Virus record (IMG/VR): IMGVR_UViG_3300035698_009173 | Source of the DNA: a virus | Strand: one strand, 5' to 3' | Length of the DNA stretch: 41,203 nt | Shown here: positions 5,631-13,280 of the stretch, piece after piece | Position numbering within the stretch: the stretch's first letter is position 1 | Layout of the letters: each line of letters opens with the position of its first letter | The notes under the pieces: generated by a model | Databases searched by the model: none | The model's input: the letters and a program-made list of their open reading frames with translations, nothing else | What the model was told of the DNA's origin: nothing | Translations under genes and position numbers: made by a program

Positions 5631-5678
5631 CGGTCCCCTTATATATCAATTTAACACTGAATTGACTTTTGTCAAGTG
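5631..5678. repeat. dispersed conserved intergenic element, copy 1 (GTCCCCTTA-TATATCAATTTAACACTGAATTGACTTTTGTCAAG)
   Basis: near-identical to copies at 7802, 8632 and 13232. Confidence 0.8.
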
Positions 5679-6054
5679 AATAATGCAAGTTTTTTATTAT
5701 TCTTTTGAATGCTTTTTTCACTTGACTAAGGGCGGTTTTGCATTATGCTAGGGGGGACCGACAAAGGAGAAAAACCATGCCAGCCACAACAAGTCTCGAA
5801 GAATATTAAGATGCGTGCGATGATTACACGGGGTGGGGTACGACGTGCCAAGCCTTCACACGCGATTGTACAGAGCCGGATGCGGAAGGTTATGATTGCC
5901 CGGATTGCGGGAACAATACGGTTATGGATGCAGAGCAAGCCTTGCTTATGGGTGAATTAGAAATTGAATAAAAAGACTTGACAAACACTCACGGATTATT
6001 ATAATGTTGACATAGCGGGATTGACCGACAACCTTTTACCAAAGGAAAGACGCC

Positions 6055-6495
6055 ATGAACGATTCACAGAAAAAAGCCTTGGAACAAGCCGCAATAAGTA
6101 AGGCAATCTCGGCCAAAGAGTTTAAAGCCGCATCGGCAAATTTGGAGCCCGGAAGCTACGCGGTTGACATGACGGTCCAGATCAAAGGCACGCTGAACAA
6201 GGGCGAAGCTTTTGAACAAAGGATTTCCAACAAAATCAATTGGATGCTTCTTTTCAGTATCGCTGCATCCAAAGTCAACGACGAGACTTTGGCATGCATC
6301 ATGAAGTCTTATGACGCAGCTGAGGGGAGCAAGGAAAAAGCAGAAGAACTGACCGATAAGGTCAAGGGCAAGGTCCAGAATCATGTGGACGATCAAAAGG
6401 GCAAGACCTTGACCCTTAAATCCGGTAATGTCAAGTCTGCCTTGACGGTCAAGGCGGTGCGAGTGAAAAACGGGACGGTCAGCCAGGAAGTCTAG
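6055..6495 (+). CDS. hypothetical protein (146 aa)
   Basis: ORF with AAAGGAAAG upstream; followed by strong intrinsic terminator 6505-6547. Confidence 0.55.
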   Translation: MNDSQKKALEQAAISKAISAKEFKAASANLEPGSYAVDMTVQIKGTLNKGEAFEQRISNKINWMLLFSIAASKVNDETLACIMKSYDAAEGSKEKAEELTDKVKGKVQNHVDDQKGKTLTLKSGNVKSALTVKAVRVKNGTVSQEV

Positions 6496-6504
6496 AACAC
6501 GACA

Positions 6505-6547
6505 AAAAGACTCCCCTTATCCCCCGCTCCGGGGGAGTCTTTTTTTA
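6505..6547. terminator. intrinsic terminator
   Basis: AAAAGACTCCCC..GGGGAGTC stem followed by T8. Confidence 0.75.
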
Positions 6548-6570
6548 ACCTGTTTTCCTTTTTATTAATT

Positions 6571-6615
6571 CTCCCCTTACATGCTAATTTAACAGTATGA
6601 TAAGATATGACAAGC
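6571..6615. repeat. degenerate copy of the dispersed element (CTCCCCTTACATGCTAATTTAACAGTATGA..ATATGACAAGC)
   Basis: shares CCCCTTACA..AATTTAACA..GACAAGC spacing. Confidence 0.55.
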
Positions 6616-6719
6616 ATTTTCTTTATTCCCAAACAACTTTTTATTTTTGTTAGGGTGGGCTTATTCTACTTGACAAAGTACAGAAAAGCATTATCCTTAA
6701 GGCATGGAGGCAATAAATT

Positions 6720-7517
6720 ATGATAACGACAAAAAGCAGGCTCGACGGCGGATTAGTCTATTCGAAATCACTCGGCATGTTTAACCTCAATCGTGGATCG
6801 GGCTCGTGCCGAAAAACCCCGGCGTGCAAGGATTGTTATGTCAACCGATCTTGCACAGCGTACAAGTTTACCAAGGCGGCATGGGCTCCAGGTGGAACGG
6901 ACGATTTAAACTGGGCTCGCTGTACTAGCGAAGTCTTTGAAGGGCTTGAAAGGGTCCGCTTGGCTTCTAGGGGGGAAGTGTTACGGACAAGCGCGGATGT
7001 TAAACGAGTAGCGGGATGGATTGTTGCTAACCCTAACACGCTTTTTTGGATACCCACCCGATCCATTTACAAAAATCGTGGCCGGGATCTGGATATTGAT
7101 CATATGAACTTGATCACACGCGAGATTGCCAACCTTCGGAATGCCCGCGTTATTGCCAGCCTTGATCCCTTTACGGCCCACCATTGGGCAGTTCTGAGGG
7201 ATGCTAACTGGTCTACCATGTTTTACGAGTCCGCAAACATGCCCAAAGGATACGAGCACGCGGGATCACACCCCGCGCTTGGTAAGAAAGGCTCCATGCT
7301 TCACTTGTGCTCAAAGACTTGGGATCTGTCTTTCCAGGACAATGGTCGCCTAGTCGGTCCTAAAGGCGATTGTGCTACTTGTGAAAATGGTTGTTTTGAA
7401 TTGACGCGGGTTGACGTATGGTTGCGCAATCATGCCAGAGCCCCAAAGAATAGTGCAATCCATGCCAAGGCTCAGATGCAAAAAAAGATTGACAAAGTGG
7501 TTGACAAACAGGCTTGA
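6720..7517 (+). CDS. hypothetical Cys-rich protein (265 aa)
   Basis: ORF with RBS CATGGAGG; promoter TTGACA 6671-6676. Confidence 0.55.
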   Translation: MITTKSRLDGGLVYSKSLGMFNLNRGSGSCRKTPACKDCYVNRSCTAYKFTKAAWAPGGTDDLNWARCTSEVFEGLERVRLASRGEVLRTSADVKRVAGWIVANPNTLFWIPTRSIYKNRGRDLDIDHMNLITREIANLRNARVIASLDPFTAHHWAVLRDANWSTMFYESANMPKGYEHAGSHPALGKKGSMLHLCSKTWDLSFQDNGRLVGPKGDCATCENGCFELTRVDVWLRNHARAPKNSAIHAKAQMQKKIDKVVDKQA

Positions 7518-7551
7518 TCTATTATACTTTATCTAACGGAGGTAACACAAA

Positions 7552-7710
7552 ATGATCTTCATCCTTTTTCCAGCCCTGCTAATAGTCACGCTGTTTGCGT
7601 GCTTGACCTTACCCCGGTCAATAAGGGTTGGAACCGATAGCGCGGTGAGTCACCCTACTCATAAAGCGCATAACACTAATAAAGGTGCAAGTCCTTGGGG
7701 GTTTACTTGA
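7552..7710 (+). CDS. small hydrophobic (membrane) peptide, ~52 aa
   Basis: not in ORF track (<60 aa); strong RBS AACGGAGGT 7 nt upstream of ATG; hydrophobic N-terminus; terminator 7738-7775 downstream. Confidence 0.3.
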   Translation: MIFILFPALLIVTLFACLTLPRSIRVGTDSAVSHPTHKAHNTNKGASPWGFT

Positions 7711-7737
7711 TGACGAGAACTACTAGGGCTATAAGGT

Positions 7738-7775
7738 GTCCGGTTATCCTTTGGGTAGGATAGCCGGATTTGTTT
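7738..7775 (+). terminator. intrinsic terminator
   Basis: TCCGGTTATCC-TTTGGGT-AGGATAGCCGGA followed by TTTGTTTTTGTG. Confidence 0.6.
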
Positions 7776-7801
7776 TTGTGCGCGGTGTTTTTTTTGTTAA
7801 T

Positions 7802-11711: not shown

Positions 11712-11775
11712 TTTGGGTAGGGTAATTTTGCCATACCCCTTTGCATCATCCCTTGTGTTGTGTCCCTGTGTCATA

Positions 11776-11811
11776 GGATAACCGGAGTCTCCGACTCCGG
11801 TTGTCCTTTTT
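11776..11811 (+). terminator. intrinsic terminator (GGAGTC/GACTCC family)
   Basis: AACCGGAGTC-TCC-GACTCCGGTT followed by GTCCTTTTT. Confidence 0.65.
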
Positions 11812-11859
11812 GTGTTATTGGGTAATAGGACTCGGGTTATCGGGTTATAGGCGATGATG

Positions 11860-11886
11860 GTTCCCTTACAAGGAATTTAAGCATGG
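11860..11886. repeat. degenerate partial copy of the dispersed element (GTTCCCTTACAAGGAATTTAAGCATGG)
   Basis: core CCCTTACAA..AATTTAAG. Confidence 0.45.
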
Positions 11887-12005
11887 GGCGAGCATATGTC
11901 AATAGTCCCTGTGTAGATTTATGCAAAACACATGATAACATATTGAATACATTGAAAAACAAAAATATCACTTGACAGATTGGGATTTTTTGGCATACTG
12001 TGGCC

Positions 12006-12218
12006 ATGGACAAGCCCTTAGAAAAAATTGACGTTTTTGATATTCAGGCACCTTCCGGCCTATCATATAGGATCAGCATGAGGCAAGCCCTTATGGGATC
12101 ATGGATTTCATTTGACAAATCAAGGGCTTGGGAACATGGCACGGTGATCCGAAAATTAGTTTGGGTTAGTGATCCCTCGCAAGTCAATGATCTTATTGAG
12201 CAAATTGAAAGCGAGTAA
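12006..12218 (+). CDS. hypothetical small protein, possibly leaderless
   Basis: track ORF 12000 (GTG); ATG 12006 lies about 8 nt after -10 CATACT (11993-11998) of promoter TTGACA 11971-11976, with no SD. Confidence 0.35.
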   Translation: MDKPLEKIDVFDIQAPSGLSYRISMRQALMGSWISFDKSRAWEHGTVIRKLVWVSDPSQVNDLIEQIESE

Positions 12219-12304
12219 AGATAGTTTGAAGTCTCCCCTTGCATAGTGCTTAAATCGTATGCATACTGTAGTCGGACGCAGGAAAACAAACCAAGGGAGA
12301 CAAA

Positions 12305-13069
12305 ATGAACAAGAAATTTCAGGTTGAGACGATTCTCAAAGCGCAGCAAAACGACAAAGCAGCAAGGGATCTGGTATGCCGTCAGGGCGCAGGGCTCGTT
12401 CACAAGATTGCTCATAAGGTCAGTCGAGCCTACGGACAAGATCAGCGTGATCTCGCACAAGCGGGATTTTTGGGCTTGTTGCAAGGCGTTGACAAATTCG
12501 ATGAAAACAGGGGGGTTATGCCGTCCACCTTCATTATCTTTTGGATCAAGGCGGAAGTGCTTAAACAGGCAAGGCATGGGGCAAGCTTGGTCAAGGGTCC
12601 GCAATCCAATGGAGCGCAAAAAGCACATTATCACCTTCGACGCACCGCAGCAAAATTGCAAGCCTTGACTGGCCAAGCGCCCGATTCCGTGGATATGGCC
12701 AAGGCGCTTAACCTGCCTGTTCACGTCGTCGAGGCTCAAAGACTCGTAATGCAGCCCGTCGCGTCCCTTAGCGCAGCTTCACCGGACGGCGCAAGCCTAG
12801 GTGACACCTTAGCAGACGAAGGCCCTACACCTGAGCAGAGCGCTGTACAAGCGCAAGCTCGATCTTGGACGGTGGAGATCATGAAGACTTTCCGACTCGA
12901 CTTGTCCGAAAAAGAGACGGCGATCTTCGATGCAAGGATTGCTTCGTCCGATCCTATCCCAGGCCGTGTGCTCGGTGATCAATTGGGTATGACGCGACAA
13001 GGTGTCAGCCAATATGAGATCAAGATCCGTGCCAAGTTGGAGAAGCGGATAAAGAATGTCCTGAAGTAG
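12305..13069 (+). CDS. sigma-70 family RNA polymerase sigma factor (group 3/4-like size)
   Basis: region 2-like GFLGLLQGVDKFDENRG..FIIFWIKAEVLKQ and C-terminal region 4 HTH LGDQLGMTRQGVSQYEIKIRAKL; RBS AAGGGAG. Confidence 0.65.
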   Translation: MNKKFQVETILKAQQNDKAARDLVCRQGAGLVHKIAHKVSRAYGQDQRDLAQAGFLGLLQGVDKFDENRGVMPSTFIIFWIKAEVLKQARHGASLVKGPQSNGAQKAHYHLRRTAAKLQALTGQAPDSVDMAKALNLPVHVVEAQRLVMQPVASLSAASPDGASLGDTLADEGPTPEQSAVQAQARSWTVEIMKTFRLDLSEKETAIFDARIASSDPIPGRVLGDQLGMTRQGVSQYEIKIRAKLEKRIKNVLK

Positions 13070-13081
13070 GAAAGCTCCCAC

Positions 13082-13106
13082 AAGGAGTCAACCCGACTCC
13101 TTTTGT
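13082..13106 (+). terminator. intrinsic terminator after sigma factor gene (GGAGTC/GACTCC family)
   Basis: AGGAGTC-AACCC-GACTCCT followed by TTTTGTCC. Confidence 0.6.
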
Positions 13107-13168
13107 CCTCAATCCGGTGGTCCCGAACTATAGGGGACCATCGGAGTCCTTTTGCCCTTTTTACGCTT

Positions 13169-13182
13169 GTTCCATGTGGAAC
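13169..13182. promoter_or_regulatory. perfect 14-bp palindrome GTTCCATGTGGAAC upstream of the ardC-like operon
   Basis: read directly; second copy GTTCCACGTGGAAC at 14493-14506 just after the ardC stop. Confidence 0.6.
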
Positions 13183-13231
13183 ATCTAAAGGACTCCGAAT
13201 ATCCTTTTGTCCCCCACCTTCTTTTTTAGGT

Positions 13232-13280
13232 CGGTCCCCTTACAAATCAATTTAAGACTGATTAAGCAATTCGTCAATGG
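13232..13280. repeat. dispersed conserved intergenic element, copy 4
   Basis: GTCCCCTTACAAATCAATTTAAGACTGATTAAG..TCGTCAATGG. Confidence 0.75.

Follow-up and report, generated by a model that had tools for sequence, protein, structure and literature searches.

The window analysed here, a 41,203-nucleotide stretch of viral DNA (IMG/VR record IMGVR_UViG_3300035698_009173), carries a dispersed intergenic element of about 50 bases that recurs between its early genes. This element is real, strongly non-random, spread throughout a clade of phages and hitherto undescribed. Megablast returned no cultured-phage or plasmid nucleotide match for the 41-kb window, and the helicase encoded in it is at most 40% identical to any cultured-phage or plasmid protein; as homologues of this helicase were found on metagenomic contigs of 145-295 kb, we consider the window to be part of an uncultured giant phage. 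Positions 1-15000 are the early region, consisting of short rightward genes with TTGACA-N16/17-TATAAT-like promoters and hairpin terminators, at a G+C content of 44-51%. The region starts about 1-2 kb upstream of the window, past a 1.1-kb non-coding stretch, and ends near 15000 at a tandem array with an 18-bp unit, where the G+C content falls to about 40%. Three of its genes recur below, those of an SNF2-type helicase (8774-10768), a full-length sigma factor (12305-13069) and an ArdC/metallopeptidase protein (13580-14491).

Copies of the element in the early region

An nhmmer profile built from 32 non-identical family members matched the window seven times, always on the plus strand, always between genes and always within 414-13281, with no further match at 15-41 kb. 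A 27-mer search allowing up to three mismatches recovered copies at 5634, 7804, 8634 and 13235, against an expectation of 0 in shuffles, and a repeat finder added the copy at 6562. Together these searches place all seven copies where an earlier note on this DNA had reported them. Across the window, the motif is not random relative to gene boundaries, with 7/7 window copies intergenic and on the plus strand.

A consensus promoter scan blind to the repeat called every one of the seven a sigma-70-type promoter on the minus strand. In the degenerate first copy (414-464, nhmmer E 1.5e-5), a -35 box TTGTCA at 456-451 and a -10 box TAAATT at 434-429 (scan 9/12 with TG) predict a start near 424 (GTACGGG). 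The second copy (5631-5685, E 1.5e-11) has TTGACA at 5675-5670 and TAAATT at 5653-5648 (10/12 with TG), and a predicted start near 5642 (ATAAGGGGA). Profile and scan also find the third (6571-6619), with TTGTCA at 6613-6608, TAAATT at 6591-6586 and a predicted start near 6580, from which a leftward RNA would reach a bidirectional-looking hairpin at 6505-6545 after about 75 nt, and the fourth (7801-7856), with TTGACA at 7845-7840, TAAATT at 7823-7818 and a predicted start near 7812 (GTAAGGGAA). The fifth (8631-8683) lies upstream of the helicase operon and has TTGACA at 8676-8671, a 17-nt spacer, TAAATT at 8653-8648 and a predicted start near 8642; in the related contigs L089 and L025, too, a copy is found one gene upstream of the helicase. 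The sixth (11858-11905), upstream of a gene for a 72-amino-acid protein and the sigma gene, has TTGACA at 11902-11897, TAAATT at 11879-11874 and a predicted start near 11869, and the seventh (13232-13281), downstream of the sigma gene, has TTGACG at 13277-13272, TAAATT at 13254-13249 and a predicted start near 13243. Upstream of the window, 1.1-1.2 kb from its position 1, contig L083 holds one additional clear copy at 7973-8018 (E 6e-6) and a second, likely one at 8054-8100, of which the profile covers only 8054-8077 (E 0.011), the remainder being assigned by eye. This brings the number to 8-9 copies per genome.

Four of the copies had been described as near-identical. Each of these departs by 1-3 bases from the consensus then given, and only the stretches 7794-7830 and 8624-8660, a 37-bp direct repeat (97% identical) formed by the fourth and fifth copies, are almost identical. 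This pair brackets a two-gene cassette (7938-8372 and 8425-8622), and the Logan contig L004 begins exactly at 8631, presumably where the 37-bp repeat broke the assembly. Most copies do have the placement proposed for them, with a terminator on one side and the next early promoter on the other: a hairpin with a T-run is found upstream of most (6520-6536, 7738-7769, 11775-11807 and 13132-13152), and rightward TTGACA-N16/17-TAnnnT sites lie downstream, at 746, 5722, 6670, 7879, 8723, 11972 and 13335.

Anatomy of the element

On the plus strand of the window, the family consensus reads TTTT-N6-11-TCCCCTTAC-N5-7-AATTTAAGCA-N13-15-TTTGTCAAG, or in short form TCCCCTTAC-N5-7-AATTTAAG/C-N14-16-TTGTCAAG, followed in many relatives by a block AATGTAGAA. 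Read on the minus strand, this becomes CTTGACAA(A), 16-17 nt, TAAATT, 5-7 nt and GTAAGGGGA, with TGT ahead of TAAATT in the window and TGCT in relatives. According to the consensus scan, the -35 hexamer is TTGACA in four window copies, TTGTCA in two and TTGACG in one; TAAATT stands 16 or 17 nt from it in all seven, with an upstream TG in four, and the spacing in the family is equal. The -35 box of relatives is mostly CTTGACAA, with TTGACT and TTTACA as variants, and the changes found at this 3' box in weaker copies (TTGACT, TTTACA, TTGACG and TTGTCA on the minus strand) are classical tolerated -35 changes. A reversed TTGACAA box had been claimed for the 3' end of the element. Indeed, TTGTCAAG is present at 5631, 7802 and 8632, but the copies at 412 and 6571 have TGACAAG, that at 11860 has TGTCAAT and that at 13232 has TCGTCAAT. 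The G of GTAAGGGG is located 6-7 nt past the -10 box, where a start is expected, and predicted positions +1 to +9 coincide with the start box GTAAGGGGA (plus-strand CCCCTTAC).

The consensus of the 32 non-identical copies resolves into three information-rich blocks with low-information spacers between them. In orthologous intergenic regions of the window and contig L087, aligned at the sixth and seventh copies, the three boxes are kept and the -35/-10 spacer is swapped (GGGGCGAGCATA vs ATCGATCTTTC), thus the element is under selection as three boxes at fixed spacing. Together with its flanks, C before and AAA after, the box CTTGACAAA equals the extended -35 of the ordinary rightward promoters of the phage. 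Moreover, contig L019 has the element and a normal gene promoter arranged in tandem, with 26 nt of upstream and -35 sequence in common, TTATTCCTA[C/A]ATCATCACTTGACAAA, at one mismatch, as if the element were the paralogue of a promoter in use.

At the Rfam gathering score the element had no match, the only hits in the window being tRNAs at 37872-41087. A hairpin with a U-run within 160 nt of the predicted start was called in only 13/31 copies, several of them weak, and no defined small RNA emerged. Literature searches with the box sequences returned only primers and unrelated matches.

Several other identities were considered for the boxes and dropped. ATTTAAC fits the RYYYAAC of an integron attC site only in window copies, relatives having ATTTAAG, and neither GTTRRRY nor an internal dyad is present. 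Judged by eye, sigma-54, sigma-32 (CCCCAT-like -10) and sigma-28 promoters were dismissed on account of spacing, partner element or conservation in relatives, and so were boxA/nut (CGCTCTTAC vs CGCTCCCCTTAC), IHF, DnaA-box, Spo0A-box, Chi-like and Ter-like sites. An RNA polymerase roadblock over the T-run of the upstream terminator was abandoned as well: the T-run by the CCCC box is also found in reversed copies, and in the copies at 6571 and 7802 it lies apart from the terminator's own T-run.

Conservation in related phages

A gapped pattern taken from the window, CCCTTAC-N5/6-AATTTAA-N15/16-TGWCAA, matched one IMG/VR contig (four copies) and about 20 JGI metagenome contigs, many with two to four copies, while matches in bacterial genomes looked like chance. 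The contigs found in this way encode relatives of the early proteins of the window, at 25-56% identity. Two more relatives, both with the element, were reached via the helicase, namely L087 (68% identical) and L089 (56% identical), the latter from a 199-kb contig. The element is thereby seen in about 15 metagenomic relatives with proteins that are 30-68% identical. Across 148 kb, made up of the window and about 14 related genomes or fragments, 51/51 profile matches are intergenic, and as a negative control about 650 kb of unrelated phage DNA (40 ArdC-carrying loci) contained no element. An exact 19-mer was found in IMG/VR on two contigs of one unrelated phage, which have nothing but the 19-mer in common with the window, and was judged chance; the sigma factor and a 291-amino-acid open reading frame (ORF) used as IMG/VR probes gave no related loci.

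Copies occupy matching slots in the relatives, in front of the helicase operon, in front of sigma, and downstream of sigma/upstream of ArdC. The anatomy of the element, its conservation, the constancy of its intergenic positions and its restriction to the early region are direct observations. The early genes are common to window 1-14500, L087 and L089 but their order differs, a sign of cassette shuffling: L087 has its homologue of 2283-2723 two genes ahead of the helicase, and L089 has that of 6720-7517 far upstream.

The predicted promoter points against the flanking genes in all window copies and in 39/51 copies across the family, a tally in which some weak reversed matches, not checked individually, are probably ordinary promoters that resemble the profile in its -35 portion. 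Of the strong copies, five or more, in about four independent slots, are inverted; they are found after sigma in L019 and L026, before ArdC in L030/L034, after ArdC in L030, and before the helicase in L089 (9841-9897). Here the predicted promoter is co-directed with the genes and located directly past the terminator of the upstream gene, as a normal promoter would be. An ordinary promoter follows these inverted copies, except for the L030 copy after ArdC, which is near the contig end and has only a 19-codon ORF behind it. As inverted copies occur at equal slots, the unit tolerates inversion. Among the copies examined, the element was not seen as the promoter of a substantial gene, that L030 copy included.

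The 18-bp tandem array

At 14977-15097, on the plus strand, Tandem Repeats Finder detected 6.7 copies of the 18-bp unit AAAAATTAATCCCCTTAC (98% matches, score 233). The earlier note had placed this array at 14981-15102 and had credited it with the core of the dispersed element; the array is real, at slightly shifted coordinates, and what it has in common with the element is an ungapped 12-mer, TCCCCTTACAAA, that is exact only in the copy at 13232 and has 1-2 mismatches in the others, while the AATT(T)AA part of the proposed core aligns to the array only after an indel of 2-3 nt. Matches to TCCCCTTACAAA with up to two mismatches number 16, as compared to 4.0 expected. The link of the array to the dispersed element is uncertain. 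The closest relative, L087, has no array despite homologous flanking non-coding DNA, L089 has a different 13-bp repeat (2.9 copies) instead, and the array sequence found no match in IMG/VR.

The array had also been called a set of iterons. Its 18 bp and 6.7 copies agree with the tandem direct repeats of about 17-22 bp that define such sites, but no initiator gene is adjacent and the array is not conserved in related replicons. The 291-amino-acid ORF beside it matches nothing in Pfam, NCBIfam or PHROGs, homology searches returned only the ORF itself, and nothing ties the array to replication. The label is thus unjustified, and the 18-bp repeats need not be replication sites.

Four independent contigs from different samples (L003, L004, L005 and L084) end inside the array or at its left edge (14973-15084), which could reflect copy-number variation, trouble of the assembler with the repeat, or a physical or terminal-repeat boundary. 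The G+C content falls exactly at the array (about 15000), from 44-51% over 1-15 kb to 33-46% over 15-41 kb, and in composition the early region is unlike the rest of the genome.

A proposed leftward promoter of host type and its alternatives

Leftward promoters had been one of several functions proposed for the element, and it is the one that the evidence favours, given the 7/7 minus-strand scan calls and the conserved boxes with free spacers in relatives. We estimate at about one in two the probability that each copy is a promoter of host-sigma type (sigma-70/sigma-A class) on the minus strand. From the sequence we infer that RNA polymerase uses the element, in which direction and from which base it would transcribe, and all that would follow from this, namely antisense control, insulation of operons and a regulator that binds the box. 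Such a promoter would comprise an A+T-rich stretch upstream of the extended -35 box CTTGACAA(A), a freely varying spacer of 16-17 nt, a nearly invariant -10 region, (TG)nTAAATT in the window phage and TGCTTAAATT in relatives, and, after 5-7 free bases, GTAAGGGGA(C/G)CG exactly at the expected start, often with TAAAAA behind it. The copies would then be a promoter class of their own, presumably under joint control and divergent from the ordinary rightward early promoters beside them. In the window phage they would fire leftward into the terminator and the 3' end of the preceding early operon, and the product may be a short or antisense RNA, of about 65-75 nt where the upstream hairpin looks bidirectional (414 and 6571). 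The box at +1 to +9, which is also multiplied in the 18-bp array, is too specific for RNA polymerase contacts and would most simply serve as an operator for a phage protein or as the 5' end of a functional RNA.

A more elaborate version of this idea, which we put forward tentatively and consider doubtful, is that of a dedicated multi-copy promoter-operator module in an uncultured giant-phage clade. A strong host-type promoter, the first nine transcribed bases of which (GTAAGGGGA) would be the target of a phage factor, would sit at the end of nearly every early operon and fire back, and all copies together would act as a switch across the genome, with convergent transcription or antisense RNA insulating early transcription or turning it off. 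In this lineage the box might then have been amplified into the 18-bp array for titrating or nucleating the factor.

Several points weigh against leftward promoters. With 39/51 copies facing against their flanking genes, and no consistent terminator or product downstream, it is hard to see what use the output of the promoter would be. Since TTGACAA reads TTGTCAA on the opposite strand, a -35 look-alike comes free with any selected TTGNCAA site, and as the 16-17 nt spacing is equal in both directions, the strand is not fixed by spacing alone. The near-invariant TTAAATT and GTAAGGGGA go beyond the need of sigma-70 and fit a dedicated DNA-binding protein equally well, although the search patterns demanded parts of the boxes and inflate the apparent invariance.

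The element may alternatively be a composite site, rather than a promoter, for a phage DNA-binding protein, such as a global early regulator, silencer or organiser, that would read CCCCTTAC and AATTTAAG/C and would also bind the array and an inverted repeat on the left border of the early region. We regard this as possible but unlikely. In relatives the CCCCTTAC and AATTTAA boxes always occur together, 5-7 nt apart, the former is repeated 6-7 times in the array and, ahead of the early region, non-coding DNA at L083 7867-7902 holds it once more as a 12-bp inverted repeat without mismatch (TGTAAGGGGAAA-N12-TTTCCCCTTACA); furthermore, the element is present in both orientations at one syntenic slot, and its invariance is above that of ordinary promoters. 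However, the two boxes have no sequence resemblance and are separated by about 1.5 helical turns, unlike a dimer site, the third box, -35-like and at promoter spacing, is left unexplained, and the closest relative keeps the dispersed element without the array. Searches of the 23 early-region proteins against Pfam, NCBIfam and PHROGs gave no DNA-binding family besides the sigma factor. The CCCCTTAC box may still be an operator for a phage regulator.

Read rightward, the same boxes could form a promoter for the phage sigma factor, with AATTTAAG/C as -35, TTGTCAAG as -10, a start a few bases downstream and CCCCTTAC as an upstream site, which would provide most early operons with a second, phage-controlled promoter. 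About three quarters of the copies point with the genes and lie just upstream of an ordinary promoter, the copy ahead of the sigma operon itself would permit autoregulation, and in many relatives the block AATGTAGAA sits where such a transcript would begin. The sigma factor is full-length, with regions 2-4, and its aligned -10/-35 contact residues are unlike those of primary sigmas (TRQGVSQ vs TRERVRQ in primary-type sigmas, WIKAEVL vs WIRQ(A/T)I), so that other hexamers would be expected of it; the minus-strand boxes are host-like. Yet the element is confined to the early region, with no copy upstream of genes at 15-41 kb or in 7 kb of packed upstream genes, and does not precede the middle or late genes that a promoter class of this sigma factor would serve. 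In addition, the exact reverse complementarity of TTGTCAAG to a host-type extended -35 box is left as coincidence, AATGTAGAA is absent from most window copies and in L019 precedes the -35 of the ordinary promoter on the other strand, like an upstream element, and the strong reversed copies, at least five in about four independent slots, would fire backwards. The earlier suggestion of phage-sigma promoters is thus not borne out, and we hold it to be improbable.

We consider it still more improbable that the repeats are mainly substrates for homologous recombination or gene conversion that shuffle early-gene cassettes, their promoter-like content being inherited from ordinary regulatory DNA. Such a role would match the copies being more alike within a genome than between genomes (the four full copies of L012 have ATAGTA as free bases, the window copies AAATCAATTTAAC), the 97%-identical 37-bp pair that flanks the two-gene cassette at 7938-8622, and the differing early-gene order of the window, L087 and L089. 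It also has a precedent in the promoter-early stem-loop (PeSL) elements of T4-like phages, which are described as joining terminator and promoter in one repeat within plastic early regions and have been proposed to act in recombination (PMC4122927, PMC2839356). Recombination alone, however, cannot hold three short boxes fixed and their spacers free across phages with 30-68% identical proteins, nor does it keep the element in matching slots, and no indel endpoint was mapped to any copy. As a by-product of another function, PeSL-like recombination is plausible. For recombination and replication sites alike, as the earlier note had envisaged, the support is only indirect: gene order differs between relatives, and the closest relative has no array.

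That the copies are replication sites, whether initiator-binding (iterons with dispersed control sites) or promoters priming replication via G-rich transcripts, is very improbable: the 18-bp direct repeats do lie beside A+T-rich DNA, the predicted transcripts open with a G cluster (GUAAGGGG) and several assemblies break at the array, but no initiator-like gene is present, the adjacent 291-amino-acid ORF being without homologues or family match, the array is not conserved in relatives, its 18 bp are out of helical phase, and a short tandem repeat explains the assembly breaks equally well.

Other features of the locus

Outside the early region, the window encodes an RNA ligase (22616-23302), RtcB (28708-29847), a PARP-like protein that matches WGR weakly (35592-36797) and a homologue of the major vault protein (38155-40659), whose gene is flanked by two tRNA clusters (37871-38097 and 40736-41170; eight tRNA genes in the window). 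These four proteins (22616-40659) are an unusual set for a phage.

The left border of the early region is a 1.1-kb non-coding stretch between packed genes and the early region (L083 7084-8187, about 1.0-2.1 kb upstream of window position 1), with one run of G13, several of C7 and, at 7867-7902, the perfect inverted repeat. Poly-G at the early-region border is also found in relatives, as G11 about 900 bp past ArdC in L036 and as G12 near 18230 in L089. The left and right non-coding borders were compared as a possible repeat pair, with only short collinear words in common, which was unconvincing.

At 400-720 there are apparently three tandem leftward mini-units, with promoter-like sites on the minus strand at 674->647 (TTGACA-16-TATTAT, 11/12), 563->536 and 456->429, the last being the copy at 412/414. 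Each is preceded by a minus-strand hairpin and T-run (705->683, about 605->570 and 497->464), and with predicted RNAs of about 70-80 nt each the units resemble small leftward RNA genes. A 26-bp tandem duplication (2.2 copies) at 11417-11472 creates two adjacent rightward -35 boxes, AAAAACTTGACAAAAAGTAA, and the duplicated promoter lies upstream of the gene at 11505-11711. Between the sigma gene and the copy at 13232, a hairpin-rich stretch of 150 nt contains TCCTTTTG(T/C)CC three times, about 50 nt apart (13095-13215), and is mostly conserved in L087 (77% identity). After the ArdC terminator follows a hydrophobic ORF of 32 codons (14555-14653) with a good ribosome-binding site, the L087 version of which has 55% identity, and the subsequent non-coding DNA (14653-14977) is partly conserved in L087, with CAGGATAACAGGACAATTAAAATCCTATAAAGCTAGAATATGACCCCCTAGGA there vs the homologous CAGGATAAAAGGACACTTAAAATCCTATGAAATGTAGAATAGACCCCCCCAGGA in the window. 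Contigs L085 and L086, from different samples, both stop at window position about 5450, which suggests a strain-variable junction.

Relation to known systems

The PeSL elements of T4-like phages (Arbiol et al. 2010, PMC2839356; Comeau et al. 2014, PMC4122927) and the element described here are both short repeated intergenic modules in a plastic early region, combining a stem-loop or terminator, an A+T-rich stretch and sigma-70-type boxes, and both vary slightly between phage lineages and accompany differences in gene order (PMC4122927). In this respect the present element qualifies as a PeSL-type repeat, with hairpins and T-runs by most copies, 51/51 matches intergenic and a variable gene order. 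A PeSL is, however, the promoter of the downstream gene and continues into its Shine-Dalgarno sequence and start codon, whereas 39/51 copies of the present element are directed away from the gene that follows. Between element and gene stands a separate, ordinary promoter (in the window and, the L030 copy after ArdC excepted, in the examined reversed copies), which leaves the element as an additional promoter-like unit, in most cases of opposite orientation. Nor have PeSLs been described with an invariant -10 region and a conserved start box, as found here.

In its details the element resembles an extended -10 sigma-70/sigma-A promoter, with TTGACA, 16-17 nt, TGnTAAATT and a purine 6-7 nt downstream as predicted start. 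We know of no ordinary promoters with a TTAAATT and first nine transcribed bases that are near-invariant across genomes; in the present element both are. Plasmids and plasmid prophages combine iterons with dispersed sites (P1 incC/incA, the N15 centromere sites), one motif being both arrayed and scattered. Here, too, one short motif occurs as a tight array and as single copies near promoters, but no initiator or partition gene is nearby, the array is missing in the nearest relative, and the dispersed copies carry two further conserved boxes with promoter geometry.

The lambda pO promoter, which makes OOP RNA, and P22 sar are host-type antisense promoters downstream of the gene they face; their product is a short RNA, about 70 nt long, which overlaps the convergent transcript in its 3' part or in the intergenic region, and both are single-copy, with defined terminators and targets. 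The window copies at 414 and 6571 would similarly give RNAs of 65-75 nt ending at hairpins. In contrast, the present element has 8-9 copies per genome with a common start sequence, no consistent terminator and some sense-oriented members.

If the leftward promoters are genuine, a second, backward-facing promoter with a fixed start sequence would stand behind most early operons, kept across 30-68% protein identity, and systematic convergent or antisense transcription, or a common operator, would control the early programme of a large lytic phage. To our knowledge, such antisense control is so far known only from single cases such as lambda OOP. The motif is at the same time a specific marker for the early region of this uncultured clade (0 matches in about 650 kb of unrelated phage DNA), and about 50 natural variants are ready for promoter or operator testing. 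A repeated regulatory module in the early region of a phage is thus of a known kind; what is new is that most copies are oriented antisense, that the -10 region is invariant and that the start box is conserved.

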